Source: Candidatus Latescibacterota bacterium
Lineage (GTDB): Bacteria; Latescibacterota; UBA2968; SICM01
DNA length: 64,000 bases
Direction of reading: 5' to 3'
Assembly (NCBI GenBank): GCA_965217865.1
Contig: CBDCJO010000002.1
Span: 899,178 to 963,177, forward strand
This document shows, piece by piece, positions 5,185 to 59,172 of the stretch (position 1 is its first letter; each line of letters begins with the position of its first letter). The position numbers and the translations under genes were made by a program. The notes under the pieces were generated by a model, which saw only the letters and a list, made by a program, of their open reading frames with translations, was not told where the DNA came from and ran no database searches.

Positions 5185-7016
5185 CTTTTTTCTTAAGGCG
5201 ACTTGAATCATTAATTTGCCATGAAAAATGGCACTGGGCATTTCCGATTGCACTTTGTGTCTTCTGGGCGATTTTCTGTTTGCCTACCGTGTTCTATAAC
5301 CTGGATGACACACGCATGATTGCTTATTTCAGCCACGATGACATATATCTGCTCGACACCATCTGGTATTTTTATAGCGGCGAATATAATCCTGAAACCA
5401 TTCAGGCCGGAAGTATAGAAGGTATGCGGGACTATGGTCTATTGTTTCGCTATATCGTCGATCTATCACGTATTTTCATCGAACCCTTTACAGAAATTAC
5501 GCCCGGCCTTCTGTGGGGAATCGTTCGATCACTATACCTCACCTGTGGTTTACTTGCCATCCTGGCATTATGGCGAATGGCCATACGGCACTTCGGCAAG
5601 GGCTGGGTGCCAGTCATCAGTGTGTTGGGCCTTGCTCTTTGTCCGTCGTTTGTCTGGCATTTGGACTTTTGCAAACCCGAACCGATCACGCTTCTTCTGA
5701 CGATTGTTGCATTCGACCACATATTGCGCATCGTCGAGCATGGCTCAGTAAGAAGTATCATAATCGCTTCAGCCTGTGCCGTTGGCGCAATTGTGGTCAA
5801 ACTTGTTGGTATTTTTATTTTGCCAATAATCATGTTGGCAATTTTTTTTCATTGGTGGCTTTCAAAGGATCGTTACAACCCAACGGTGTGGGTGGGTTTT
5901 TTCATGATTGTTGGGGGTATCATATGGGGGATCAGGATAAATTCTCTAGGCCGAATTATTGAATCTTCGCAGCGAGGTATTATCTTTTCGCAGATATTTT
6001 CCGCAATTGTATTGGTTCTTGGTTCGAGTGCAGCTTTTTTCGTTGTTTTTGGATTCCGTTGGCTCCTTGATCCTAAAGATTTTATATCAAAATTCATCGA
6101 GATTTCGAGTTACTCCCTATTTTCAAAAGCGAATCCCATCGGGGATCCGATCGGGTATGGGAAGGCCCTATTTCTCAATATTGGCGAATTCGTCTACACC
6201 ATCAGTGGGCTCAGGCTGCTTCTGTTTGGATGGTACAACAACCCTAATGTGGCTGAACCCAAAATTGCAGGTGACATCTTCACCCCTTTCGGCCTGGTGT
6301 TAATTCTCTGGTTTGTCGTCATAGAATTTAGAGGATTTGGGGGGAAGTGGAACATCGGAGATATCAAGTTTTTTAAACGATCGCATTTAGCCCTATTTTT
6401 TGTGGGTTTTGCATCCTATATGGTTTTAACATCATTCCGCAGCACACGTCACATGCACCATTTGATGTATTTGGTTCCCCCCGGTTTTTTGCTCATCGGC
6501 CAAATACCCCAGTTGATCAAAAAGAGGGGCAATTATCAAAAAGATATATTCATTCTCGTTGTCCTTCTTGTCGCGACCTTTTCCCTGAATGGGCAAACCG
6601 CCATTCGATGGCGGCTTAATAAGCTTGAACAGGGAAGGGGGTCCGATGATATTGTGTGGCAGGTCCAAAAATGGTGGCGAGACAATGTGTCTGTAGATAC
6701 GCCAATCGTCGCTGATCTTCCTTGGAAATCTTATCTGCCTCCCGAATACCAAAATGTTTCCTTCTTTAACTCCCGAGCACATAATGGGAAGGATTATTCG
6801 CGAGCACATGCATCGTTACTTGAGAAGATTGATATGAGAAAACCGGAAATGGTTTACTACAATGCCGGTTCACGGGGAATTCAACCCCCCATGAATAATC
6901 TTCCTGGATATAAAATTCAACAGATCGCCAGCTTTCAGGGAAATTATTATACAAGATATAGAAACAACGGCGATAGATTCATTGTTTATAAAATAAAACC
7001 GATTTCTGATATTTGA
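5181..7016 (+). CDS. GT-C-like polytopic membrane glycosyltransferase (ArnT/PMT-like) with a C-terminal soluble domain
   Basis: 611 aa with many hydrophobic helices. An acidic motif follows the first helix (YNLDDTRMIAYFSHDD). The gene overlaps the upstream gene by 4 nt and precedes an ArnC/Dpm1-like GT2 gene. Confidence 0.5.
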   Translation: MTFFLRRLESLICHEKWHWAFPIALCVFWAIFCLPTVFYNLDDTRMIAYFSHDDIYLLDTIWYFYSGEYNPETIQAGSIEGMRDYGLLFRYIVDLSRIFIEPFTEITPGLLWGIVRSLYLTCGLLAILALWRMAIRHFGKGWVPVISVLGLALCPSFVWHLDFCKPEPITLLLTIVAFDHILRIVEHGSVRSIIIASACAVGAIVVKLVGIFILPIIMLAIFFHWWLSKDRYNPTVWVGFFMIVGGIIWGIRINSLGRIIESSQRGIIFSQIFSAIVLVLGSSAAFFVVFGFRWLLDPKDFISKFIEISSYSLFSKANPIGDPIGYGKALFLNIGEFVYTISGLRLLLFGWYNNPNVAEPKIAGDIFTPFGLVLILWFVVIEFRGFGGKWNIGDIKFFKRSHLALFFVGFASYMVLTSFRSTRHMHHLMYLVPPGFLLIGQIPQLIKKRGNYQKDIFILVVLLVATFSLNGQTAIRWRLNKLEQGRGSDDIVWQVQKWWRDNVSVDTPIVADLPWKSYLPPEYQNVSFFNSRAHNGKDYSRAHASLLEKIDMRKPEMVYYNAGSRGIQPPMNNLPGYKIQQIASFQGNYYTRYRNNGDRFIVYKIKPISDI

Positions 7017-7046
7017 CGAATATCAATAGTCGATATATGGACCTGA

Positions 7047-7832
7047 ATGGAGATGAAAATGAATGAGGACCAACTATCTTTAACCTGTTTCTTTCCTTGT
7101 TATAACGATGCCTATACCATCGCGAGCCTCATAGGGGCCGCGGATGTGGTTGCTCGAGAATTCACTCCCGACTATGAGATCATTGTTGTTGATGATGGAA
7201 GCACAGACAGCAGCCGGGAACTTCTGATTGACCTCCAGGAAAGGTACGTCAATCTTAAATTAATTTTCCACAAAAAAAACGTTGGATATGGGGGTGCCTT
7301 ACAAACGGGCTTTCGTGCTGCGAAAAAAGATCTGGTGTTTTATACGGATGGAGATGGCCAGTACGATGTATTTGAACTTCGAAAATTCCTGAAAGTCATT
7401 CAAGATGGTGTTGATGTCATAAACGGTTATAAGATCGATCGTGCAGATCCCTTACATCGAATCATTATTGGAAAGATATATCTCTATCTTATGAGGTTGC
7501 TTTTTAATTTCAAAATTCGTGACGTCGATTGCGATTTTCGACTGATGCGGCGAAAAGTTTTTGACAAAATATCATTAGAACACACAAGTGGCGTTATCTG
7601 TATTGAATTGGTTAAAAAGCTTGAATTGAAGAAGTATCGGTTTGTGGATTTTCCAGTCCATCATTACCATCGCATGCATGGAAAATCACAGTTTTTCAAC
7701 TTTAGAAGGCTTTTCCGGACTGGCATAAATATTCTCCGGCTCTGGACGACGGTAATTCTAAAGCCCAACTTCCGTCGAATGTTCAATCTAAAGGTTGAAC
7801 ATGCTGCGATAGAAGGATTCCATGGCAATTGA
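7047..7832 (+). CDS. GT2 glycosyltransferase, polyprenyl-phosphate sugar synthase-like (ArnC/Dpm1-like)
   Basis: FFPCYNDAYTIASLI...YEIIVVDDGSTDSS and YTDGDGQYD (DXD motif). The start could also be the ATG at 7053 or 7059. Confidence 0.8.
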   Translation: MEMKMNEDQLSLTCFFPCYNDAYTIASLIGAADVVAREFTPDYEIIVVDDGSTDSSRELLIDLQERYVNLKLIFHKKNVGYGGALQTGFRAAKKDLVFYTDGDGQYDVFELRKFLKVIQDGVDVINGYKIDRADPLHRIIIGKIYLYLMRLLFNFKIRDVDCDFRLMRRKVFDKISLEHTSGVICIELVKKLELKKYRFVDFPVHHYHRMHGKSQFFNFRRLFRTGINILRLWTTVILKPNFRRMFNLKVEHAAIEGFHGN

Positions 7833-45201: not shown

Positions 45202-46245
45202 ATGATGCACCCATTTCTGTATACATTTCTAATTGCGCTGACCATCTCCCTTTTGGTCACTCCACTCATGCGGGTCTTGGCCTTAAAGGTTAAGATGGTC
45301 GACCTTCCAAACGCCCGAAAGATCCACAGCCGGCCGGTTCCATATCTTGGAGGCGTGGCCATCAGCTTGGCCTTCGTATTCAGCATCCTGATCGGACAAC
45401 GGTTGTTCCAGGGGTTTCAAACCTTTCAATCCCTGTATTCCATCTTATTGGCGTGCGGGGTCATCGTTCTCCTGGGGTTATACGATGATCACAGGGGATC
45501 ATCCGCATGGATCAAAGTTATCTTCCAGTCAACGGCTGCCATCATCGTTATCAACGCCGGGATTCAGATCGATATGATCAAGATCCCTTTTTTTCAATAC
45601 ATCCATCTGGGACTCTGGAGTTGGCCGGTCACTTGCCTCTGGATCGTTGGCCTATGCAATGCCGTCAACCTCATCGATGGGTTGGACGGACTGGCAGCTG
45701 GAGTTGCCATGATCGCGTCCTTTTCCCTTTTCGCCACCTCAATTCGGTGGGGCGAGATTGAGGTTGCTTTGCTCTGCATCGCTATGGCGGGAAGTTTGCT
45801 AGGGTTTTTGCGTTACAATTTTCATCCTGCACGTATCTTCATGGGGGACGCCGGTGCTCTCCTGCTTGGATTCCTCCTGGGGGTTCTGAGCATCATGGAA
45901 GGATCTAAAAGCACATCCGCCATCGCCGTTCTCATCCCCATTACTGCCCTTGGGATACCCATCCTGGACACCGGAGTAGCCATACTCCGCCGCCTCCGAA
46001 AGGGGGATCCCCTTTTCGTGGCAGACCAGGAGCACCTCCATCATCATCTGCTCCATATCGGGCTATCCCATCGTCAAGCCGTCATTCTAATATACCTGGC
46101 GTCCATTTACCTCGGCATCCTTTCCTTTGCGATGACATTCCTCCTTCCCGACCTGCGTGCGGTTATCTTCGTCGTCATGGTCGTGAGCGGGACGCTGGTT
46201 GTAAGGCGGTGGGTAAAATTGTATCAAGCTTCGTTGAACAGGTGA
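45202..46245 (+). CDS. WecA/WbpL/MraY-family polyprenyl-phosphate HexNAc-1-phosphate transferase (initiating enzyme)
   Basis: VDLPNARKIHSRPVPYLGGVAI, YDDHRG, NAVNLIDGLDGLAAG, NFHPARIFMGDAG. Confidence 0.85.
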   Translation: MMHPFLYTFLIALTISLLVTPLMRVLALKVKMVDLPNARKIHSRPVPYLGGVAISLAFVFSILIGQRLFQGFQTFQSLYSILLACGVIVLLGLYDDHRGSSAWIKVIFQSTAAIIVINAGIQIDMIKIPFFQYIHLGLWSWPVTCLWIVGLCNAVNLIDGLDGLAAGVAMIASFSLFATSIRWGEIEVALLCIAMAGSLLGFLRYNFHPARIFMGDAGALLLGFLLGVLSIMEGSKSTSAIAVLIPITALGIPILDTGVAILRRLRKGDPLFVADQEHLHHHLLHIGLSHRQAVILIYLASIYLGILSFAMTFLLPDLRAVIFVVMVVSGTLVVRRWVKLYQASLNR

Positions 46246-46648
46246 GTTTGACAAAAGCCGGCAAAAAACAACCAATCATTTTCCCCAAATGATGGGTCGG
46301 GCAAGTCAAGACCATTCCTCCCCAACTCCCCCTTTTCTCGCCGGACAGGAAATATTTTCACAGTCCGGGATCTTTTCTCAAACGATTCAACTGCAACCGG
46401 GGTCACTCGGCCTACCATTTTCCAGTCTGAAACAAACCCAAATTCACGCGTTTGCCGCAGCAAAAGGCAGATTCAGCAATGAGCTTGTGTTATCGAGCTC
46501 CACCAATCCTAAAAAGTGCTTAACCTCTGGTTTCATATGGCACATGCATTGCTTTTTCATACGATGTCGGATTTGTTCTGAATGAATAAGGGATTTCCCC
46601 CTGGGTCTGACTCCTAAGTGTGGTATCAAGCGAAGAAAGGAAAGGAAT

Positions 46649-46867
46649 ATGGATCTCAATTGGGTCTTTTATGCTGTCGTCCTATTTGTGGTCGGGGGGA
46701 GTTATTTTTTTAACGCAATCGCAAGCCGGATTCAGATCGGGCGATCCAAGACCGAACATATTGCTGTTGCACCTCTCCAAAACAAATCACCTTCAAAAGA
46801 AATCCCCTTGGTCGACCCATTTCCCCATCTCTCCTCGCCTAAACCGCTTTCCTCGGTTCAGTCTTAA
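46649..46867 (+). CDS. hypothetical small protein with an N-terminal transmembrane helix
   Basis: 72 aa. GGAAAGGAA lies upstream of the ATG, and there is one TM helix (WVFYAVVLFVVGGSYFF). No homologue recognised. It lies in an otherwise ORF-poor 780-nt gap. Confidence 0.25.
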   Translation: MDLNWVFYAVVLFVVGGSYFFNAIASRIQIGRSKTEHIAVAPLQNKSPSKEIPLVDPFPHLSSPKPLSSVQS

Positions 46868-47033
46868 ATCTTCCAGTGATATTGCGTGAAAATTGTGAGT
46901 TTCCGCGTGCCAAGGAGCTGGCCTCGCTGTATATTTGTGGATGTATGGTGATGTAATTGCTGGCATCTTCGCCGCCACCTTCCTAAAACGCTTTCTAATT
47001 CGAGTTCCAGACAAGATTTTCTGAAAGATCTCA

Positions 47034-48269
47034 TTGAGCCATCGAATTTTTCTGATTCTTCCGACCACCACCTACCGGGCAAGTGCATTCCTTAAGGCGG
47101 CCCGGAAGTTGGACATAGAGATCGTTGTGGGATCGGACCGTCGCCAAGCCCTTGCGGATCAGACTCCAGGGAAGAGCCTTGCTCTCGATTTTCAGGACCC
47201 GGAGAAGGCCGTCCGTGAGATCGTCGAATTTTTCAAAGCCGATCCGCCAAAGGCCGTACTTGGGGTGGATGATGATAGCGTCCTCCTCGCATCCATGGCA
47301 AGCGAAGCCCTTTCTCTGCCACATAACACCGTCGCGGCGATCCTGGCCACCCGCAACAAGTACCGGATGCGGAGCATCACGGAAAAGGCGGGAATTCCAT
47401 CACCAGACTTTTTCCTTTTCCCGATAGACTCCGATCCCGTCTCGGTCTCCCGATCAGTGAAATTTCCTTGCGTCCTCAAACCGCTCTCTCTTTCAACCAG
47501 CCGCGGGGTTATCCGGGCGAACAATGCGGATGAATTGGAGTCCGCTTTCAAACGGATTGCGAGGATATTATCCGGCAAAAAGACGATTGTGAAAGGGGGC
47601 CGAACCGACGATGGCCTCCTGGTAGAAGACTACATCCCGGGAGCCGAGATCGCCCTGGAAGGAATGCTGTCCCGGGACGGTCTCCGGGTTCTGGCGCTTT
47701 TCGACAAGCCGGATCCCCTGGAAGGACCATTCTTTGAGGAGACCCTCTACATTACGCCATCTCGGCTTGCCGTCACCCTTCAGGATAAGATCAAGGACCG
47801 GACGGCTGAGGCCGCCAAGGCGCTCGGCCTTCGGGATGGCCCGATACACGCCGAATTACGTCTCAACGATGCGGGGGTCTGGATCGTGGAGATCGCCGCC
47901 CGTTCGATCGGAGGCCTGTGTTCCCGGACGTTGCGGTTCGGAACAGGCATGTCCCTTGAAGAAGTGATCCTGCGAAACGCAATCGGCTCACCCGCGGCCT
48001 CGATGGAACGGGATGGTGCAGCGGCCGGTGTGATGATGATGCCCATACCACAGAAGGGATTGTTACGAGGGATTAAGGGATTGGAGGCAGCGAGAATGGT
48101 CCCGGATATCGAAGAGATCTCGATTACCATCCCGACCAACCAGGCTGTGGTGCCGCTGCCGGAAGGGTCCAGATATCTGGGGTTCATCTTCGCCCGAGGG
48201 GAGTCTCCCTCGCTGGTGGAGGAGGCCCTCCGGGAGTCTTACGGGCAGATCGAGGTGATCATCGAATGA
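47034..48269 (+). CDS. ATP-grasp domain protein, substrate unknown
   Basis: FPCVLKPLSLSTSRGVIRANN, LVEDYIPGAEIALEGML, GPIHAELRLNDAGVWIVEIAARSIGG. TTG start. Confidence 0.7.
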   Translation: MSHRIFLILPTTTYRASAFLKAARKLDIEIVVGSDRRQALADQTPGKSLALDFQDPEKAVREIVEFFKADPPKAVLGVDDDSVLLASMASEALSLPHNTVAAILATRNKYRMRSITEKAGIPSPDFFLFPIDSDPVSVSRSVKFPCVLKPLSLSTSRGVIRANNADELESAFKRIARILSGKKTIVKGGRTDDGLLVEDYIPGAEIALEGMLSRDGLRVLALFDKPDPLEGPFFEETLYITPSRLAVTLQDKIKDRTAEAAKALGLRDGPIHAELRLNDAGVWIVEIAARSIGGLCSRTLRFGTGMSLEEVILRNAIGSPAASMERDGAAAGVMMMPIPQKGLLRGIKGLEAARMVPDIEEISITIPTNQAVVPLPEGSRYLGFIFARGESPSLVEEALRESYGQIEVIIE

Positions 48270-48305
48270 ACGGAAGGGAAAGTGAGGAGAGAACTTGCAC
48301 GGGGT

Positions 48306-49793
48306 TTAAACAAGAGCAAACTGCTCTTCGGAGGGTTCCGCTCAGCAGTACCACGGTTCCGTCATGTACGGAATCGTAACGGGTGAACGCTTAAAATACG
48401 GGTCGGGCAATGACTCCGACCGATGTAGGGCTTTCTGCACACAGGTCCAGATGGTATCGAAAACATCCCTTCGACAGGCATTCCCCGCCTGTCCTTCGCA
48501 AATCAGGTTCCTGACATCGTGGTAGAGCCGGTCCACCCCAGGATCCTGATGGCTCCAATCATAACTCAGTCGCTCCTCTTCAAAAGGACCCATCAAGGAC
48601 CTGACTTCAGGTAGCTCCAGAAGTTTGGAATGTGCGGGGATCAACAATCGTATCGCCAGCTGTATCGGAGATACGGAATCGATCAGATCGAGAGTCGTCA
48701 ACAACTCCAACAGCTCCAGATAGCCGTCGAGGGTTATCCACGGAGAGAATGGGACAAAGGTGGGGTTCAAGTTGAGACCGAGGTGGTTAAAAATCTTTAC
48801 GACCCCGATAAAGTCCTCCCGGGTATGGCCTTTGTCCAATATCGCGAGCACCCTGTCATCTATCGATTCTACGGCCGTTGTCACCATCGCGCAACCCGTT
48901 TCACGCAGGGTTGGGAGATGCTTGGTGTATTTCAGCAGGTGCTCGACTTTGATCGTAACATCGTAGGAAACGGCTGGAAATTCTTCGTGAAGGGCTTGGA
49001 TGAGGGGGATGGCGTGGCCGATGCCGTTGAAGAAATCAGGATCACCAAATGTGATGTGCTCCGCGCCTGCCTCCACCTGTTGTCGAATGTCCTGAAGGAC
49101 AACCTCGGACTGGACGATACGGAATTTCCCTCGATAGACCGGCACGATCGGGCAGTGACGACAGAGGTGTTTACACCCTCGGCTGGCCTCAACATAACCG
49201 ACCGTTCTGGACTGCTGTTCTCCGACGTGAAGTCTCGCATAATGGGACAGGGGGGGAAGTCCCTGCCGATCCGGCACAATAAACTCCTGACGTCGGATTG
49301 AAATCAACGGTTCCAACTGCCCTTCAGGAGGTTCCTGATCTCCGGAGTCGAGCAGCCGTCTGCAAAGGCTGGCCAATCCCTCCTCGAATTCCCCTCCGAG
49401 AATGGTATCCGCTCCTGTACGCCGCAGGTGGGCCTGATTCATCGGGGCATACAGGCCGTAGCAGCAGATATGTGCACGGGGATTGAGACTTTTTACTTTG
49501 GGGATGAGGAGCACTGTGAGCCGGGTGGCGGTGTGCATCGGAACGAAGAACGCCACCATGTCCGAACCTTCAATCCTGCGCTGAGGAAAGTCATCGACGG
49601 ACAAGTCCGCACAGATAACATCTACACCCTCGGCTCTGAGCCAAGCAGCCGGGGATGCCAGACCAAATGGCTGTCGGCCCAGCTCATACGTCGAGATCAG
49701 GAGAACTTTCAACGGTGGGCTTGCGGTATCGCTAGGCTGGTTATGCGGGGGATTACTTGGATGGCTGATAATAGGGATTGTTCCCACTCGCAT
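48306..49793 (-). CDS. B12-binding-domain radical SAM protein with a C-U-A-E-P tail; TGA at 48342..48344 read as selenocysteine
   Basis: N-terminal B12-binding-like Rossmann segment (KVLLISTYELGRQPFGL...MVAFFVPMH) and radical SAM motif EASRGCKHLCRHCPIV. The track ORF ends ...MTEPWYC-TGA. Continuing in frame gives AEPSEEQFALV then TAA (48306..48308), so the tail reads YCUAEP. Confidence 0.65.
48312..48328 (-). promoter_or_regulatory. SECIS-like hairpin downstream of the in-frame UGA
   Basis: The minus-strand RNA reads AAGAGCA-GUU-UGCUCUU, a 7-bp stem with a 3-nt G/U loop that starts 13 nt after the UGA. This spacing is similar to the ~11 nt reported for the minimal E. coli fdhF SECIS. No U-tract follows, so it is a poor terminator. 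Confidence 0.4.
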
Positions 49794-50334
49794 GGTCTGT
49801 CACATCGAAGACTTCGGTGATTTCCGGAACGGATTCCTTGATCATCACTTCGATCCCCTGTTTCAGAGTGACATCAACCATGCCACAGCCCTGGCATCCG
49901 CCTCCAAGTTGGAGGAAGACGACATTGTCTTTGATGTCGATCAGGGAAACGTACCCGCCGTGGTTGGCCACACCCGGATTGATCTTCTCATCGATCACGG
50001 TCTGCACTCTCTGGGCGATAGGTCCTGACAAATTTTGTGGAAGTTTTTTCGGGGCATCTATCTTGAACCCGCTGGCCATGTCTTCCTCGACGTAGTCAAC
50101 CGTCGCTTCTTCGAGATGCTGGAGGCTATCGGGATCGATGTAGAGGTCGAAACCCTCGAAATTTACGACGGTGTCCACCTGCTCTTCCTGGCCATCGAGA
50201 ATGAATGCGAGCTGGTAATTTACTTTTAGGGGCGACTGGGCCTCGGCCTTGATACGCAACCCTTTCACGGGTTTCCCGGTGTCCGCGATGAGTTGGACGA
50301 TCTTTGTTTTTGCCGCCTCGGTGATTGTGACCAT
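49753..50334 (-). CDS. nfuA: NfuA-like Fe-S cluster carrier (degenerate A-type N-domain plus Nfu C-domain)
   Basis: 193 aa. The N-terminus MVTITEAAKTKIVQL is HesB/IscA-like without the Cys triad. The C-terminus carries GGCQGCGMVDVTLKQGIE (CxxC Nfu motif). Confidence 0.75.
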   Translation of the reverse strand: MVTITEAAKTKIVQLIADTGKPVKGLRIKAEAQSPLKVNYQLAFILDGQEEQVDTVVNFEGFDLYIDPDSLQHLEEATVDYVEEDMASGFKIDAPKKLPQNLSGPIAQRVQTVIDEKINPGVANHGGYVSLIDIKDNVVFLQLGGGCQGCGMVDVTLKQGIEVMIKESVPEITEVFDVTDHASGNNPYYQPSK

Positions 50335-50632: not shown

Positions 50633-50896
50633 ATGTGGGGTTGGTTTCGGAGGATTTTTCAAGGCGGTTCTCTCACTTCTTCCCCTCCACTTCTACAAGG
50701 CACGATCAAGCGGATTATTCGGGATAGGGGATTTGGGTTCATTCGAACGAGTGGAGGAAAAGAGGTCTTCTTTCACAGATCAGCGCTGATTGACGTGAAT
50801 TTGGGATCTCTTTCGGAAGGGCAGAGCGTCGAATTTGAGGTGGAGGAAGGTCCAAAGGGTCCCAGGGCTTCCAGGGTTCGTGCGGTTGACCATTAA
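50633..50896 (+). CDS. cold-shock domain protein with a 22-aa N-terminal extension
   Basis: GTIKRIIRDRGFGFIRTSGGKEVFFHRSAL contains the RNP1/RNP2-like motifs. An AAGGAG Shine-Dalgarno lies upstream of the ATG. There is no alternative in-frame start codon close to the CSD core. Confidence 0.75.
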   Translation: MWGWFRRIFQGGSLTSSPPLLQGTIKRIIRDRGFGFIRTSGGKEVFFHRSALIDVNLGSLSEGQSVEFEVEEGPKGPRASRVRAVDH

Positions 50897-52008
50897 TGGC
50901 TTAGGATCTCCTTTGCGAATGATTTAAGGATTTCCACGATCCTTTCTGCAACGTTTCCATCCCATAAGTCGGGAACTCCTCCCTCTTTGTAACACCCATC
51001 GAGTACCCGGAAGGCCTCTCGAATGATTATATCCGGTTCTGAACCGACCAGGGTATTTGTCCCCACCGAGATGGTCTCCGGACGTTCGGTATTTTCACGA
51101 ACCGTTAGACACGGGATGCCCAGGCAGGTTGTCTCCTCTTGTATTCCGCCGGAATCTGTAATCACGAGGCGGGCTTCTTTCTGGAGTTTGATGGATTCGA
51201 CATAACCGACCGGTTCGGTCGTAATCAGGTTGGGCATCTGATCGATATCTTTTTGCAAGCCGTGTGTCTCCAATGCCAAACGGGTCCTGGGGTGCAATGA
51301 GAAGAGGAGAGGGATGCGCTTCTGGATATCGCTGAGGGCAGACAGGATCGCTTTCAGTTTTTCCGGATGGTCGACATTGGATGGACGGTGGAGGGTGACG
51401 AAGCCATAGTCTTGGGGGTGGACCCCCAAAGTAGACAGGACGGGCGAGTTTTCGGCAGCTTCCATGGTGTTGAAGAGTGTATCGACCATCACGTTTCCCA
51501 CACGGTGGATCTTCTCCGGAGGGATCCCTTCTCGGGTCAAGTTTGCCCCTGCCTCTTCCGAGGTGGTGAGGAGGAGGTCCGATAGCGTGTCCGTTATCAT
51601 CCGGTTGATCTCTTCGGGCATCCTCCTGTCGAAGCTGCGAAGGCCCGCCTCTACGTGTGCGACCGGGATATGGAGCATCGCACCGCAGAGCGCACAGGCG
51701 AGGGTCGCGTTGACGTCGCCAACGACCAGAATGAGATCGGTTTTTTGATCGTTCAGGATTTTTTCAAAGGCCATCATCGTTTTTGCGGTCTGAACCGCTT
51801 GTGTTCCAGATCCGATCCCCAGATGGTGGTCCGGTTCGGGAAGTTCCAGGTCGCGGAAAAAGATAGCGGACATCTGCCAGTCGTAGTGTTGATCCGTGTG
51901 AACAAAGGAAGGTAAAAACGCATCCGGGTCCTTTCTAAGGGCCCGGAGGATCGGGGCAATTTTCATAAAGTTTGGCCGCGCACCCGCGACGAGGGTGATG
52001 CTCAGCAT
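50893..52008 (-). CDS. wecB: UDP-N-acetylglucosamine 2-epimerase (non-hydrolysing)
   Basis: ITLVAGARPNFMKIAPI, VVGDVNATLACALC, HVEAGLRSFDRRMPEEINR, TDSGGIQEE. Confidence 0.85.
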   Translation of the reverse strand: MLSITLVAGARPNFMKIAPILRALRKDPDAFLPSFVHTDQHYDWQMSAIFFRDLELPEPDHHLGIGSGTQAVQTAKTMMAFEKILNDQKTDLILVVGDVNATLACALCGAMLHIPVAHVEAGLRSFDRRMPEEINRMITDTLSDLLLTTSEEAGANLTREGIPPEKIHRVGNVMVDTLFNTMEAAENSPVLSTLGVHPQDYGFVTLHRPSNVDHPEKLKAILSALSDIQKRIPLLFSLHPRTRLALETHGLQKDIDQMPNLITTEPVGYVESIKLQKEARLVITDSGGIQEETTCLGIPCLTVRENTERPETISVGTNTLVGSEPDIIIREAFRVLDGCYKEGGVPDLWDGNVAERIVEILKSFAKEILSH

Positions 52009-52166: not shown

Positions 52167-52511
52167 ATGGCTGATAAAGCCCTTATGTCGGTTCTGATGC
52201 CCGTTATGCTTGCCCTGTGCGTCCTGGCCTGCCAGGGGGCCGGTGCACGCGAGTCTAAGATCAAAGTGGACAGTGTGGTATGCGGCATGTGCGAGAAGAC
52301 GGTAAAGACCGCGCTCGGGGATGTGGAGGGGGTCCATCAGGTCGCCGTCGATATGGATGAAAAGGTAGTTACAGTAAAGTATGACGAGTCCAAGGTCCTC
52401 CTCAAAGAGTTGGAAAAGGCTATCGCGACGGTTGGTTATAATGCGAACGACACAAAGGCGGAGCCAGAAGCCTATGCCGATCTCCCGATGTGTTGTAAAA
52501 TAAACGGTTAA
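52167..52511 (+). CDS. heavy-metal-associated (HMA) domain lipoprotein / periplasmic metallochaperone
   Basis: Signal peptide with a lipobox-like VLAC, HMA motif VCGMCEKTVKTAL, and a C-terminal MCC. Confidence 0.65.
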   Translation: MADKALMSVLMPVMLALCVLACQGAGARESKIKVDSVVCGMCEKTVKTALGDVEGVHQVAVDMDEKVVTVKYDESKVLLKELEKAIATVGYNANDTKAEPEAYADLPMCCKING

Positions 52512-52573: not shown

Positions 52574-54283
52574 ATGAATATTCCGACCCATGACGTCCTG
52601 GTTGTGGGAGGGGGTGGTGCAGGTTTGCGGGCCGCCATCGCTTCGGTCGAAGCTAACGATCGCATCAGTGTCGGGGTGGTGTCCAAGGTCTATCCCATGC
52701 GGAGCCACACGGTTTCGGCCGAGGGGGGGACAGCTGCGGTGATGCGGGAGGACGACGATCTGGACTCGCATGCGTACGACACCATCAAAGGAAGTGATTT
52801 TCTGGCGGACCAGGATGTGGTGGAGACTTTTGTTAAAGAGGCCCGGGATGAGGTGATTCAGATGGAGCACTGGGGTTGTCCCTGGAGTCGGGATCCCGAC
52901 GGTCGTGTGAGCGTGAGGGCTTTCGGGGGTATGAGTGTGAAGCGGACACTGTTCGCCGCGGATAAGACGGGGTTCCACATGCTGCACACCCTATTCCAGA
53001 CCTCCATGAAGTATGAACGCATCAGGCGATACGATGAGTGGTTTGTGACGTCTCTAATCCTGGAGGATGATAAAATATGCGGTGTGGTGGCTCTGAACCT
53101 CCTTTCGGGGGGTATTCACGCCATACCGGCGAAGGCCGTTATCATTTGCACAGGGGGGGCCGGAAGGATCTTTCCATTCACCACGAATGCAGCCATCAAG
53201 ACCGGAGACGGAATGGCGCTGGCCTATCGGGCGGGGTGCGCGTTGAAAGACCTGGAATTCGTTCAATATCACCCCACCGGTCTCCCCGGCACGGGGATCC
53301 TCATGACAGAGGCCTCAAGGGGAGAGGGCGGCTATCTGCACAACAACAAAGGTGAGCGATATTTGAGCGAGTATGTCCCCGGAAAGATGGAGTTGGGCCC
53401 CAGGGATATCCTTTCCCGCGCATTTATCCACGAAACGAGGGAGGGGAGGGTCTTTGAGGGCCCCCACGGGACGTATGTCCATCTGGATTTGCGACATCTC
53501 GGGGAAAGGACCATCGACGAGAAGCTGCCATTTGTGAGGGAGCTCACCCGAAACTATGTGGGGATCGATCCGGTCTACGAGCCGATTCCGGTCAGGCCGG
53601 TGGTTCATTACATGATGGGTGGCGTGCATACGGATATCCACGGGGCGACACCCATTCACGGCTTGTATGCAGCGGGGGAGGCCGCCTGTGTGACCATGAA
53701 CGGTGCGAATCGCCTGGGGTCCAATTCCCTCTCCGAGTGTCTCGTCTTCGGGGCAAGGGCCGGTCGGGCGGCGGCAGATTATTCGGAGGGGCAGGGCCCT
53801 CCCGATAGCCTCATCCTGGGAAAGATTACCGAAGCGGAAAGAAACCGAATCGAAACGGATTACCTTCATCGGCAAAACGGGAAAGACCGAGTGGCCGATA
53901 TCCGAAACGAGCTGCAGGCCTCCCTGGAGAAGGGAGCGGGTATATTCCGTGAAGATGGAGAAATCAAACAAACGTGCGAAACGATTCGAGGACTCAAAGA
54001 ACGCTTTGAGCGGGTCGGGCTGGATGATCGGTCAGGGGTTTTCAATACGGAACTCATCTCTGCCCTCGAACTGGGATATATGCTTGACGTCGCCGAAGCC
54101 CTCGCCCATTCAGCCCTTTTGAGACAAGAATCGAGAGGATCCCACGCCCGTTCGGATTTCGAAGAACGAGACGACGATCGTTTTCTCAATCATTCTCTTG
54201 CGTATCGGACGCCAGATGGACCCCGTATCGAATACCTGCCGGTGTCGATCACCCGATGGCAACCTGAAGAGCGGAAATATTAG
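52574..54283 (+). CDS. frdA: fumarate reductase / succinate dehydrogenase flavoprotein subunit (E. coli Frd type)
   Basis: [17 protein letters not shown] and [11 protein letters not shown], which contains the His for covalent FAD. The gene is followed by frdB, frdC and frdD homologues. Confidence 0.85.
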
Positions 54284-54306
54284 AGTGAAAGAAAGAAAGG
54301 GCACGC

Positions 54307-55053
54307 ATGAGCACTAAGACCATCACCTTGAAGGTGACGCGATATCGGCCGGAACAGGAGGAGGCCCCGACAGAGCAATCCTATCAAATCCCGTATCGGG
54401 ATGATTGGGTTGTCCTCGACGCCCTCAACTATGTCAAAGATCGGGTTGACGGTACCCTATCATATCGCTGGTCCTGCCGGATGGGGGTGTGCGGAAGTTG
54501 TGGTATGATGGTCAACGGAGAACCTAAACTGACGTGTTCCGCCTTCCTGAAGGATTACTATCCGGACGAGGTACGGGTTGAGCCGCTCGTCAATTTTCCG
54601 ATCGTTAGGGATCTTGTGATCGATATGACGGACTTTATGAATAAGCTCAAGGCCGTGAAACCATGGGTCATGCGACAGCGGGAGAAACCCGTGACAGAAG
54701 GAGAGCATCTCCAATCACCGGCTCAGCTAAAGACTTTCAAACAATTTAGCATGTGCATCAACTGTATGCTTTGTTATGCCGCGTGTCCGGTCTACGGCCT
54801 GGAGCCTGAGTTCATCGGGCCCGCCGCCATCGCCCTGGCGCACCGATACAATATCGACTCCAGGGACGAGGGTTGGGAAGAAAGAAAGCCGATCGTCGCG
54901 AGCAGCGAGGGGATCTGGGAGTGTACCTACATCGGCGAGTGCAGTGTGGTCTGTCCTAAGGAGGTAGATCCTGCGGCGGCCATCCAGCGAACCAAGGTTG
55001 CGACGACCACGGACTGGGTCAAGTCGATTCTCTTGCCGTGGGGGAGAAGTTGA
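54307..55053 (+). CDS. frdB: fumarate reductase iron-sulfur subunit
   Basis: [41 protein letters not shown]. Confidence 0.85.
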
Positions 55054-55463
55054 TGGAGATGGAATCCGAATACAGGTACCGGACCTATAACCGTCCGATA
55101 CCCGCCACTTGGTGGCTGCGCAACCGCAGGTATTTTTTGTTTATGATACGGGAACTGACCAGCGTGTTTGTCGCTCTGTTCGTCCTGTTGTATCTCTACG
55201 AAATCTTTTTGTTGACCAAGGGGCCGGCCGTGTACGGAAAGTTCCAGGAATCCCTGCGGTCGGGCCCGTTCATCGCGTTTTATGTTATCGTCCTCCTCTT
55301 CGCAATCTTCCACAGCATCACGTGGCTGGGTTTGGTCCCCAAGATTCAGATCGTCCGTCTAGGCCGTATGACGGTCCCTCCGATTTTGGTCGCAGTGGGC
55401 TCGTATATCGCCTGGATCGTCGCCTCGGCCGTCGTCGCCACTTTTTTCTTTACCCTGACGTGA
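55053..55463 (+). CDS. frdC: fumarate reductase membrane anchor subunit C
   Basis: RPIPATWWLRNRRYFLFMIRELTSVFVALF parallels E. coli FrdC [25 protein letters not shown]. The ATG at 55053 overlaps the frdB TGA and has GGGGAG upstream. The track ORF starts at 55038. Confidence 0.75.
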   Translation: MEMESEYRYRTYNRPIPATWWLRNRRYFLFMIRELTSVFVALFVLLYLYEIFLLTKGPAVYGKFQESLRSGPFIAFYVIVLLFAIFHSITWLGLVPKIQIVRLGRMTVPPILVAVGSYIAWIVASAVVATFFFTLT

Positions 55464-56497: not shown

Positions 56498-57241
56498 CTA
56501 TATCTGAAGTACCGCCCTTATATATTCCCGATTGAGAAAAGCGATGTGTGAAACGGATATCTCTTTGGGGCAGACCGCTTCGCACTCGTATTCATTGGTG
56601 CAGTTTCCAAAGCCTTCGGCCTTCATGGATTCTACGAGGGACAAAACCCTTCTGCGACGCTCGGATTTCCCCTGGGGGAGTATGCCCAGATGTTTCACTT
56701 TTGCCCCGACAAAGAGCATGGCCGCGGCGTTCTTGCACGAGGCCACACAAGCTCCACAACCAATGCAGGCAGCGGCATCCATGGCTTCTTCGCCCGTTTC
56801 CTGAGGGATCAGGACGGCGTTGCCGTCCGGAGCCGAACCGGTGTTCACCGAGACATAACCGCCGGTCTGCAATATTCGATCGAAGGCCGAGCGATCAACA
56901 ACCAGATCCTTCACGACCGGAAATGCCGCCGCGTGCCAAGGTTCGATATGAATGGTTTCCCCTTCATTAAAACTCCGCATGAAGAGCTGGCAGGTGGTGG
57001 TCCCCTTCCCCGGGCCGTGGGCAACGCCGTTGATGACAAGACCGCAGGTGCCGCAGATCCCTTCCCGACAATCGCTGTCAAAAGCGACAGGGTCTTCCCC
57101 CTTCAATGCCAACCGCTCATTCAGCACATCCAGCATCTCCAGGAAGGACATGCCCGGAGATACATCGGTTGCCGGGTAAACGACCATTTTCCCTTTATCC
57201 AGAGCATCCTTCTGTCGCCAGATCCTGAGCATAAAATTCAT
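56498..57241 (-). CDS. sdhB: succinate dehydrogenase / fumarate reductase iron-sulfur subunit (type B complex)
   Basis: [42 protein letters not shown] chose the ATG at 57241 (MNFMLRIW), 8 nt after the sdhA stop; the track ORF extends to 57343, inside sdhA. Confidence 0.8.
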
Positions 57242-57249
57242 GCCCTTGC

Positions 57250-59172
57250 TCACTTGTAGCTCCTTTGAGAAAGCGAGACGTTTTCGAAAACCAAGGGCTC
57301 TTTGTGGAGGGAGGGTGGGTCCCCAACGCCATTGAATTCCCAAGCGGCCACATGAGCAAATCGATCATCGTCTCTCAGCGCTTCGCCATCCGGGGTCTGG
57401 TGTTCTTCCCGAAAGTGGGCCCCGCAAGACTCTTCCCGCAGAAGGGCATCGTGGATCATAAGCTCACCAAACTCCATGAAGTCGGCCACCCGCCCCGCCC
57501 GCTCGAGTGTCTGATTGAACTCGCCGTATGACCCGGTGACCGTCAGGTCCGACCAGAACGCTTCTCTAATCTCGGCCACCTTTTCCACCGCCTGTTTGAG
57601 GCCAGCTTCATTTCGGGACATACCGCAGTAATCCCAAAGGAGCAGGCCCAGTTGTCGGTGGAAGTCGTCCACGGTGCGATTACCGTTGATTGCCAGCAAT
57701 TTGCCGATCCTATCGGAAACAGATTTTTCAGCTTCCTTAAAGGCCGGATTGTCTGTGTCGACCTTTTTCATCGAGGAGGCCAGGTAACCCCCGATGGTAT
57801 AGGGGATGGTGAAATAACCATCCGCGAGTCCCTGCATCAAGGCGCTTGCCCCAAGGCGGTTGGCACCGTGGTCCGAAAAATTGGCCTCCCCTATGACGAA
57901 TAAGCCCGGTATGTTGCTCATCAAGTCGTAGTCCACCCAGAGACCGCCCATCGTATAGTGAACGGCTGGGTAGATACGCATGGGTGTCTTGTAGGGGTCC
58001 TCGTTCGTGATCTCCTCGTACATCTTGAAAAGATTCCCGTACTTTTGTCGGATCACTTGCTCTCCGTCCCGAAGGATGGCGTCCCGGAAGTCTAGGTAAA
58101 CCGCCCGGTCCGTGGCCCCGACCCCCCGCCCATCGTCGCAGACGGCCTTTGCATTTCGGGAGGCGACATCGCGTGGCACCAGGTTCCCAAAGCTGGGATA
58201 CCTTCGCTCGAGATAGTAATCGCGTTCCTCTTCGGCTACGGATTCGGGAGGTCTCGTGTCGCCAGGCGTTTTCGGGACCCAAACCCTACCGTCGTTTCGC
58301 AGACTTTCGCTCATGAGTGTCAACTTCGACTGATGGTTTCCGGACACGGGGATACAGGTGGGATGGATCTGTGTGAAACAGGGATTGGCGAAGAAAGCCC
58401 CAATTCTATGAGCCCGCCACGAAGCCGTCACATTACAGGCCATGGCATTCGTCGATAGGAAGAAGGCGTTGCCGTATCCTCCCGTAGCGAGGACAACCGC
58501 GTCGGCCACGTAGGACTCTATCTTCCCGGTGACAAGATTCCGGGCAATAATTCCCCGTGCCGAACCTTCCACGAGGACCAGTTCCAACATCTCCCGTCGG
58601 GGGAAGAGGGTTATTTTGCCAGCGGCGACCTGGCGCATCATGGCCCCGTAGGCGCCCAGGAGCAGTTGCTGGCCCGTTTGTCCCCGGCAGTAGAACGTCC
58701 GTGAGACCTGAGCTCCTCCAAACGATCGGTTTGCCAGGGTGCCGCCGTACTCTCGAGCGAAAGGCACCCCCTGAGCCGTGCATTGATCGATGATGTTGTT
58801 GCTGACCTGAGCTAAGCGATAGACGTTGGCCTCTCTCGAACGATAATCGCCGCCTTTGATTGTATCATAGAAAAGTCGATGTACGCTGTCTCCGTCATTC
58901 TGATAATTCTTGGCCGCGTTAATGCCGCCTTGGGCAGCGATACTGTGGGCCCTACGAGGGCTGTCGTGGATGCAAAAGGATAACACGTTGTAGCCCAACT
59001 CTCCTAGAGAGGCGGCAGCGGAAGCGCCTGCAAGTCCCGTTCCAACGACGATGATGTGATGTTTCCGTTTGTTGGCCGGATTGACAAGCTTCAACTCAAA
59101 CTTGTGCTTGTCCCATTTCTGCTCCAAAGGACCGCCGGGGATGTGTCCATCGAGTGTCATCAGCATCTCCAA
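57250..59172 (-). CDS. sdhA: succinate dehydrogenase / fumarate reductase flavoprotein subunit (type B complex)
   Basis: [46 protein letters not shown] start at 59172; ATG alternatives at 59166 and 59160. Confidence 0.85.

Follow-up and report, generated by a model that had tools for sequence, protein, structure and literature searches.

A probable selenocysteine codon in place of a stop in a Latescibacterota radical SAM gene of family NF040546, and a tentative link to ArsL

Does the radical S-adenosylmethionine (SAM) gene considered here end at its TGA, or is that codon read as selenocysteine (Sec)? The gene lies on the minus strand of a 64,000-nt stretch of contig CBDCJO010000002.1 from a Candidatus Latescibacterota bacterium, referred to throughout as the window. 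Its open reading frame (ORF), 49793..48342, closes with the C-terminus ...TIPYMTEPWYC followed by TGA at 48344..48342, and an earlier annotation made from the letters of the window alone (the original prediction) proposed that the frame continues through this codon into a C-U-A-E-P tail. Translation of the minus strand past the TGA bears out this read-on, adding U and 11 further residues to the preceding 483 for a total of 495 aa before a TAA at 48308..48306. Overall, we consider it very likely that the gene encodes a selenoprotein of family NF040546 with UGA 48344..48342 decoded as Sec, in which case translation would end at the TAA and the protein would finish ...EPWYC-U-AEPSEEQFALV.

The original prediction had named, with no accession, a family defined by exactly this tail, and the name proved to be real: NF040546.1, 'CUAEP/CCAEP-tail radical SAM (seleno)protein', is an NCBIfam equivalog model with a curated cutoff of 500 bits. 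Scored as a whole protein with UGA read as Cys or Sec, the window product covers profile positions 1-467 of 468 with a score of 617.4 bits. The same protein cut at the UGA scores 596.8 bits over positions 1-457 of 468, leaving 20.6 bits and positions 458-467 as the contribution of the tail. Since both score and profile positions are gained, the tail belongs to the NF040546 model, and the hidden Markov model (HMM) match covers it. The C-terminal Cys-[Sec/Cys]-Ala-Glu-Pro of the family appears here as ...EPWYC-TGA-AEPSEEQFALV. The window gene has in common with NF040546 a full-length match, the CxxxCxxC core, the C[U/C]AEP tail and the Sec/Cys alternation; it shows no material difference and is a typical short-tail member. 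Pfam finds just the generic Radical_SAM domain above threshold (PF04055, 46.6 bits versus a cutoff of 29.5), and the cluster ligands C207, C211 and C214 are invariant in 120 of 120 relatives.

The recoding is not itself a discovery, since NCBI curators already model and name the family, and several relatives (P0067, P0074, P0078, P0097, P0112 and H1) are annotated with the NF040546 name. The function of the family is still without assignment. Haft & Gwadz (bioRxiv 10.1101/2022.07.06.499078) call the family 'uncharacterized', as the original prediction had it, and describe its structure and function as not well known. Our literature search found no further paper naming NF040546, and neither its accession nor the name CUAEP appears in a 2026 review of the prokaryotic selenoproteome. 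Public records cut the gene at the Cys, both here and in most relatives: the identical database protein (P0001) is recorded as 483 aa, ending at the UGA, and 114 of the 120 closest database proteins end exactly at ...EPW[YF]C, the other 6 going on as CCAEPTEEQFAPL or similar. With such records, the databases lack the very residue on which the chemistry probably depends. The family is large, with at least 598 loci in a genome scan.

We fetched 80 genomic loci from Latescibacterota, Acidobacteriota, Methylomirabilota (NC10), Gemmatimonadota, Chloroflexota, Entotheonella, Nonomuraea and others and compared the codon aligned with the window TGA. It is TGA in 65 loci, a Cys codon (TGC/TGT) in 14 and unresolved in 1. 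The TGA loci comprise 62 with the standard C-TGA-AEP, the variants L071 (ELWYC-TGA-AEP) and L080 (C-TGA-SEP), and L038, which is cut by a contig end; the motif C-[Sec/Cys]-A-E-P accordingly stands in 76 of the 80, alongside the two variants, the contig-end cut and the unresolved locus. Wherever sequence goes on, an in-frame AEP (SEP in L080) and a conserved tail follow, either short, AEPTEEQ[FVL]A[PL][FVI], or long, with about 25-30 residues. The original prediction had judged an exact A-E-P after Cys-TGA very unlikely by chance, and the recurrence of C-TGA-AEP in 62 of 80 independently fetched loci agrees. Across 64 TGA loci the first and second positions of the A-E-P codons are almost invariant (L080 being the exception) while the third positions take 4, 2 and 4 bases, respectively, and such wobble next to near-fixed positions marks the tail as translated. 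A selenoprotein gene is expected to have an in-frame UGA where homologues have Cys, with conserved coding sequence beyond it, and this is the pattern found here.

The same arrangement extends beyond the 80 loci to L086 and to Thermomicrobium roseum DSM 5159, whose megaplasmid (NC_011961.1, L082 7935..9440) reads ESWFC-TGA-AEPLEDP... with a hairpin after the TGA, and whose coding sequence RefSeq ends at the Cys. The neighbours of the T. roseum gene are a pyridoxal 5'-phosphate aminotransferase, an MFS transporter and a large GNAT protein, not an ATP-grasp ligase.

These comparisons bear directly on the plainest alternative, in which the TGA is a true stop at Cys483 and the hairpin beyond it a terminator or an mRNA-stabilising element between convergent genes. 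Such a stop would agree with the public 483-aa annotation of P0001, yet in 64 loci from several phyla the frame past the TGA shows protein-level conservation, with third-position wobble; 14 orthologues carry a sense Cys codon and the same tail; and truncation costs 20.6 bits and 10 positions of the profile. We regard a true stop as very improbable, and the hairpin itself adds to the case against it.

The 7-bp hairpin that the original prediction placed at 48312..48328, 13 nt past the UGA, is real. Its loop is GUU, or AGUUU on opening of the A-U closing pair, with the loop G at 48321 and the loop U at 48319. In all TGA loci the hairpin keeps the same spacing to the UGA and takes one of two registers: in register A (short-tail, codons xEEQxAP) positions 17-22 pair with 28-33 around a 5-nt loop, and in register B (long-tail, xxDQLxP) positions 16-22 pair with 27-33 around an AGUU loop. 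With each sequence put in its better-fitting register, which somewhat inflates the percentages, the TGA loci are paired in 94.7% of cells in register A (n = 38; 19 double-sided compensatory cells) and 89.4% in register B (n = 27; 12 double-sided compensatory cells), with 0 of 500 shuffles reaching these values in either case, and the Cys-codon loci reach 56.0% (register A, n = 14; 3 such cells) and 44.9% (register B, n = 14; 6 such cells), the same as shuffles. Sliding the 3' partner by 1-3 columns as a control leaves 33-61% of cells paired in the TGA loci. The mean number of consecutive stem pairs is 5.6 in TGA loci versus 2.2 in Cys loci (Mann-Whitney p = 1.2e-6), and the loop G, at the third position of a conserved Gln codon, occurs in 64 of 64 TGA loci and in 10 of 14 Cys loci (A in 4 of 14). 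Because pairing is maintained by compensatory changes in TGA loci and falls to shuffle level in Cys loci, there is strong support for a hairpin that behaves as a selenocysteine insertion sequence (SECIS) element and not as a terminator. The arms of the stem covary via amino-acid changes (E-E...A-P versus G-D...V-P), and the RNA structure therefore constrains the protein sequence of the tail. In the long-tail subtype (L021, L025, L028-L032, L035-L037 and other Acidobacteriota), the tail ends ...Q[AT][ED][AS]F[VI], and a 1x1 A.C mismatch is often present.

In favour of a terminator, the hairpin falls within the 73 nt that separate the TGA from the stop of the convergent ATP-grasp gene, and GUUU follows the stem. 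The terminator reading was nevertheless rejected: the hairpin is not among the calls of a terminator scan, only 2 of 62 loci have a T-run after the stem, in 32 of 62 a longer coding tail encloses the whole hairpin, and the stem decays exactly where a Cys codon replaces the TGA. Distance from the UGA and the loop G are the criteria of bSECISearch-type models. Like the bacterial SECIS elements of the fdhF/fdnG type, the hairpin begins 13 nt after the UGA within coding sequence, undergoes compensatory changes and presents, about 20 nt from the UGA, an apical loop with an invariant G and U. Unlike them, it has no Rfam match, a short stem of 6-7 bp in the window family and two registers, and it limits the residues of the tail.

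Apart from the inflation of the paired percentages, two negative results weigh against the Sec reading. Rfam gave no SECIS family match at its gathering thresholds, and a permissive search of 48230..48420 gave chance matches with E>1 only; of the SECIS-model check that the original prediction had proposed, the Rfam part therefore failed, and the covariation specific to TGA loci held. In addition, neither tRNA-Sec nor selA, selB or selD was found in the 64-kb window by ARAGORN, a motif scan or tblastn with E. coli SelA/B/D, and the motif scan and tblastn gave nothing in the fetched loci either; for 64 kb out of a ~5.8-Mb genome this negative carries no information. The true-stop view can also claim it. 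The window tail and hairpin are nearly identical to those of relatives at 59-64% protein identity, and AEPTEEQFALV occurs in L001, L002 and L086. Retention of an intact tail and hairpin by proteins so diverged argues, indirectly, for a working Sec system in the lineage, and we infer that the organism can decode Sec.

Translation of the tail does not by itself name the inserted residue, and UGA might in principle be read as a standard residue (Trp, Cys or Gly) by readthrough or reassignment. We give this very little credence: TGA is strictly accompanied by a hairpin that sits at the SECIS distance and whose loop G is invariant, and the forms without TGA carry Cys, the classic partner of Sec. 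Genome-wide reassignment of UGA was rejected because UGA is an ordinary stop in the window, where it ends 19 of 58 long ORFs with sensible gene boundaries. Decoding as Sec thus remains the preferred reading of the codon. The features on which it rests are collected in Table 1 with the two adjacent genes.

Table 1. Positions of the radical SAM selenoprotein gene, its recoding features and the adjacent genes in the window
Feature	Coordinates	Strand	Remarks
Radical SAM selenoprotein gene (probable), longest ORF through the UGA	48306..49793	minus	495 codons + TAA; translation
TAA stop after the tail	48306..48308	minus	same frame
Tail A-E-P-S-E-E-Q-F-A-L-V	48309..48341	minus	translated only on UGA decoding
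SECIS-type hairpin, stem AAGAGCA/UGCUCUU, 7 bp	48312..48328	minus	stem starts 13 nt after UGA
In-frame UGA, probable selenocysteine U484, directly after invariant C483	48342..48344	minus	translation and aligned codons of relatives
CxxxCxxC motif C207/C211/C214, radical SAM [4Fe-4S] cluster ligands	49152..49175	minus	...SRGCKHLCRHCP...
L-amino-acid-ligase-type ATP-grasp gene (by sequence)	47034..48269	plus	convergent with the radical SAM gene; 36 nt between stop codons
NfuA-type Fe-S cluster carrier gene	49753..50334	minus	directly upstream of the radical SAM gene

The other end of the gene calls for a correction. All coordinates given for the ORF in the original prediction stand, with the exception that its annotated ATG start at 49793 fits less well than TTG 49712..49710. 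With the ATG as start, the gene shares 41 nt (49753..49793) with the 3' end of NfuA, its upstream neighbour, and the NF040546 profile match begins at residue 30 of the longest ORF. The TTG, at residue 28, opens the sequence M-K-V-L-L-I-S, in agreement with the family consensus MxVVLISTYELG, and yields a protein of 468 aa, exactly the length of the NF040546 HMM. On the strength of this consensus, the HMM length and the overlap with NfuA, TTG 49712..49710 is probably the true start.

What might such a protein do? Judged by profile matches, ArsL is the closest characterised relative of the family. Its model, NF040542, is the second-best family match, at 299.2 bits (profile 1-420 of 423) and below its cutoff of 450, and identity to RCCLKC-tail proteins from Bacillus and Priestia plasmids is ~32% over 415 residues. 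ArsL splits the C-gamma-S bond of SAM to generate a 3-amino-3-carboxypropyl (ACP) radical that is added to As(III). All three cysteines of its C-terminal RCCLKC motif bind arsenic, and ArsL without this motif keeps SAM cleavage and loses product formation. Like ArsL, the window protein begins with a Rossmann-like domain, continues with a radical SAM core and carries vicinal soft-ligand residues at its very C-terminus, and MAFFT aligns the vicinal CC of ArsL with C483-U484. In contrast to ArsL, the window-family tail is ~53 residues longer and ends C-U-A-E-P..., with two rather than three tail ligands, the C-terminal motif of the family being PY[LM]xEPW[YF]C[U/C]AEPxxxQ. The family further conserves the cysteines C61 (92%), C110 (97%) and C301 (100%), none of which is present in the ArsL-type protein. 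The two groups also differ in distribution: members of the window family occur widely across Acidobacteriota, Methylomirabilota, Latescibacterota, Gemmatimonadota and Chloroflexota, and complete arsQML clusters come mainly from Proteobacteria, with ArsL orthologues themselves more widely distributed.

On Bacillus cereus plasmid pBFR_2 (L083 1444..2667 and 6001..7275), an RCCLKC-tail gene sits amid ArsR, an MIP channel, GNAT, ACR3 and ArsC/D/A. An ATP-grasp gene 3.3 kb upstream of it is 22% identical to the window ligase (E=4e-14), so that this plasmid copy, too, has an ATP-grasp gene nearby.

For P0109, a homologue that naturally has Cys at this position, AlphaFold gave a model of good overall confidence, with a predicted local distance difference test (pLDDT) score of 84.7 and a predicted template modelling score (pTM) of 0.87. 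Its last ~30 residues are of low confidence and have no regular secondary structure, and the C-terminal tail is on that account probably flexible. Foldseek ranked AprD4 best, followed by TsrM, OxsB, MgmA, TokK and MiaB (E=1e-16 to 1e-12, template modelling (TM) scores 0.59-0.67). With AprD4 and the class-B radical SAM enzymes TsrM, OxsB, MgmA and TokK, the family has in common a Rossmann-like N-terminal domain followed by a radical SAM barrel, although sequence identity is just 13-18%. A sequence search of the PDB gave a single marginal match, 9ccb, and the PDB holds no deposited ArsL structure. The 'B12-binding' label of the original prediction is doubtful, the PF02310 match of 24.6 bits falling below the Pfam gathering threshold of 32.1. 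Both AprD4, the best fold match, and ArsL homologues are reported not to bind cobalamin (PMC12931638). Given the sub-threshold domain hit and the reported lack of cobalamin binding in these proteins, B12 dependence was rejected as unsupported, and the family is not to be called B12-dependent.

A C-terminus of this kind need not hold a substrate. The mammalian thioredoxin reductase ends in Gly-Cys-Sec-Gly, a C-terminal selenenylsulfide/selenolthiol pair, and the Cys-Sec tail might likewise serve as a redox arm, swinging into the active site and passing a hydrogen atom or electrons to a radical intermediate or resolving a covalent one, in an enzyme that may do conventional 5'-deoxyadenosyl radical chemistry. 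The redox activity attributed to the tail in the original prediction is an assumption, not a result. A redox arm would suit a vicinal Cys-Sec on a flexible, low-pLDDT C-terminus, the use of Cys instead of Sec in 14 of 79 loci, which is typical of redox selenoproteins, the absence of a metal or metalloid gene context, and the best structural match, AprD4, which is a conventional 5'-deoxyadenosyl radical enzyme. It sits less easily with ArsL, whose vicinal Cys tail binds substrate and has no redox role, or with the long conserved PY[LM]xEPW[YF]C[UC]AEPxxxQ, which exceeds what a minimal redox dyad needs. Haft & Gwadz (bioRxiv 10.1101/2022.07.06.499078), moreover, tie the rare CU motif to heavy-atom chemistry or binding. 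The other CU-motif selenoproteins (HgcA variants, SAO-locus proteins, MerT variants and KCU-star) resemble the window protein in their rare vicinal Cys-Sec and in the database truncation typical of them; they differ in having unrelated folds, and no mercury or organometallic genes lie near the window gene. On balance, the redox arm is a possible but not a probable account of the tail.

Gene context offers a second line of evidence. We clustered all ORFs of 81 loci (the 80 fetched plus the window), dropping neighbour clusters 1, 3-8, 10 and 11 as antisense or off-frame ORFs of high-GC genes, although part of cluster 1 is a real aconitase. An ATP-grasp gene is adjacent to the radical SAM gene in 52 of 81 loci, or 46 of the 67 with enough downstream DNA; it usually lies directly downstream on the same strand and is convergent in the window and its closest relatives. 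The best matches to the window ligase stand on the same contigs as the best matches to the radical SAM protein. By sequence, the ATP-grasp protein is of the L-amino-acid-ligase type: ATP-grasp_4 (122.2 bits), ATPgrasp_N (44.2) and LAL_C2 (45.4) all exceed their Pfam cutoffs, and the nearest solved structure is that of BL00235 (3VOT, E=3e-39), followed by other L-amino acid ligases and by BacD (E=5e-11). BL00235 makes Met-Gly and Met-Met (PMC6920838). DUF169 (PF02596), which has several conserved Cys, lies directly downstream of the radical SAM gene in 11 of 81 loci (for example L010 11529..12242). In some loci this gene joins the ATP-grasp gene, and in others it replaces it.

The upstream NfuA gene (TIGR03341, E=4e-47, below the model cutoff; Pfam Fe-S_biosyn and NifU) is probably co-transcribed with the radical SAM gene. 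NfuA stands directly upstream in 15 of 81 loci and also in L086, which repeats the window layout where an Fe-S assembly operon ends. In 5-6 of 81 loci (Latescibacterota, Gemmatimonadota) the upstream DNA carries a complete SUF operon, in the order SufC, SufB/D, cysteine desulfurase, NifU_N, FeS_assembly_P, Rrf2, NfuA and radical SAM gene. In Methylomirabilota the order, on one strand, is ATP-grasp, NfuA, radical SAM gene and sometimes DUF169. The remaining neighbours are unrelated housekeeping genes such as aconitase, glucose-6-phosphate dehydrogenase (G6PD) and glucokinase; in the long-tail Acidobacteriota loci, aconitase lies divergently upstream and G6PD and glucokinase lie downstream. No arsenic, mercury or selenium genes recur around the loci.

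The Fe-S assembly genes suggest a further possibility, namely that the enzyme inserts sulfur or selenium or sacrifices a cluster in the manner of MiaB or LipA, with C61, C110 and C301 ligating an auxiliary Fe-S cluster that is consumed or remodelled and rebuilt by NfuA and SUF, and with the Cys-Sec tail interacting with that cluster. NfuA repairs the auxiliary cluster of LipA. Consistent with this idea are the conservation of the three cysteines in the family and not in the ArsL-type protein, the weak sequence and fold matches to the methylthiotransferases MiaB, MtaB and RimO, and the linkage to NfuA (15 of 81 loci) and SUF (5-6), which recurs in L086 and L089. On the other hand, T. roseum has no C61, adjacency of NfuA may just reflect ordinary delivery of the radical SAM cluster, and 64 of 81 loci have no Fe-S assembly gene within 7 kb. 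An auxiliary cluster therefore strikes us as rather unlikely. Neither it nor the redox arm is exclusive of an ArsL-like mechanism, with which both are compatible.

That mechanism, which we put forward tentatively and by analogy, is that the enzyme works like ArsL, though the odds are against it. The flexible Cys-Sec tail, perhaps with the invariant C301 as a third ligand, would present a soft atom at the active site; this might be a metalloid, or else sulfur or selenium that a persulfide-type donor supplies. The ACP radical generated from SAM would add to the tail-held atom, giving an alpha-amino acid, X-CH2-CH2-CH(NH2)-COOH, which the neighbouring L-amino-acid ligase would condense into a dipeptide. 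Delivery or repair of the Fe-S cluster(s) would fall to the products of the nearby NfuA and SUF genes. The cleavage of SAM at C-gamma rather than C5' is extrapolated from ArsL to this family. The ACP and ligase proposals fit each other, in that ACP transfer would yield an alpha-amino acid and BL00235 prefers methionine, which has the same skeleton. Given the lack of ars genes and the linkage to NfuA/SUF, sulfur or selenium would be at least as plausible a target as a metalloid.

Several observations count against an ArsL-like mechanism with a ligase partner. The NF040542 score lies below its cutoff; an RCCLKC motif is absent, with only the vicinal pair aligning; and no ars genes (arsM, arsQ, arsR, ACR3) are present in the window or recurrent in the 80 loci. 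Adjacency to the ATP-grasp gene is missing in 21 of 67 loci. Ligase relatives with 57-58% identity (L087 5369..6544 and L088 5350..6525) lie beside a FIST-domain protein only, with no radical SAM gene within 4 kb, and L089 has the order SufBD...SufE-NfuA-ligase, again with no radical SAM gene within 4 kb. Because the ligases of L087 and L088 have no radical SAM gene nearby, adjacency does not tie the ligase exclusively to the radical SAM enzyme.

The wider surroundings in the window are as follows. Gemmatimonadota/Latescibacterota-type loci have Spore_YtfJ and DUF2953 before the ATP-grasp gene in a conserved order (L039 12840..13965; L086 2862..3988). The window has no homologues of the YtfJ, DUF2953, SUF and DUF169 genes found near relatives, and two small unannotated ORFs (46289..46585 and 46620..46889) fill the YtfJ/DUF2953 position. 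A WecA/MraY-family glycosyl-1-phosphate transferase (45202..46245, plus strand) and a WecB UDP-GlcNAc 2-epimerase (50893..52008, minus strand) flank the NfuA, radical SAM and ligase trio. Over the ~45 kb upstream, a long series of ORFs shares one strand and resembles a cluster for polysaccharide biosynthesis. On the other side, a 114-aa HMA-domain ORF (52167..52511, plus strand; PF00403 according to the identical ENA contig) lies just upstream of a fumarate reductase/succinate dehydrogenase (frd) operon (52574..55463, plus strand), which encodes a flavoprotein (846 bits versus TIGR01176, just under the cutoff), then an Fe-S subunit and two membrane subunits. A second ORF resembling an Fe-S subunit occupies 56498..57343 on the minus strand.

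The gene in the window thus belongs to a large family that spans major soil and groundwater phyla with no known function, and whose sole characterised relative, ArsL, performs very unusual radical chemistry. New here are the link to ArsL-type ACP-radical enzymes, the L-amino-acid-ligase partner and the Fe-S assembly genes, by which the function becomes directly testable, together with a SECIS element in two registers that covary with tail residues. T. roseum DSM 5159, cultured and of the Sec type, and natural Cys-type variants such as that of Nonomuraea provide experimental entry points. More speculatively, and with a low probability in our own estimate, the family may be a second and far wider ArsL-type branch that transfers ACP to a tail-borne sulfur, selenium or metalloid atom, perhaps supplied via SUF/NfuA, and hands the product to a ligase for dipeptide formation. 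If so, the product would be a homocysteine- or methionine-like, or an organo-selenium or -metalloid, amino acid, and Acidobacteriota, Methylomirabilota, Latescibacterota, Gemmatimonadota and Chloroflexota would possess an unrecognised small-molecule pathway.

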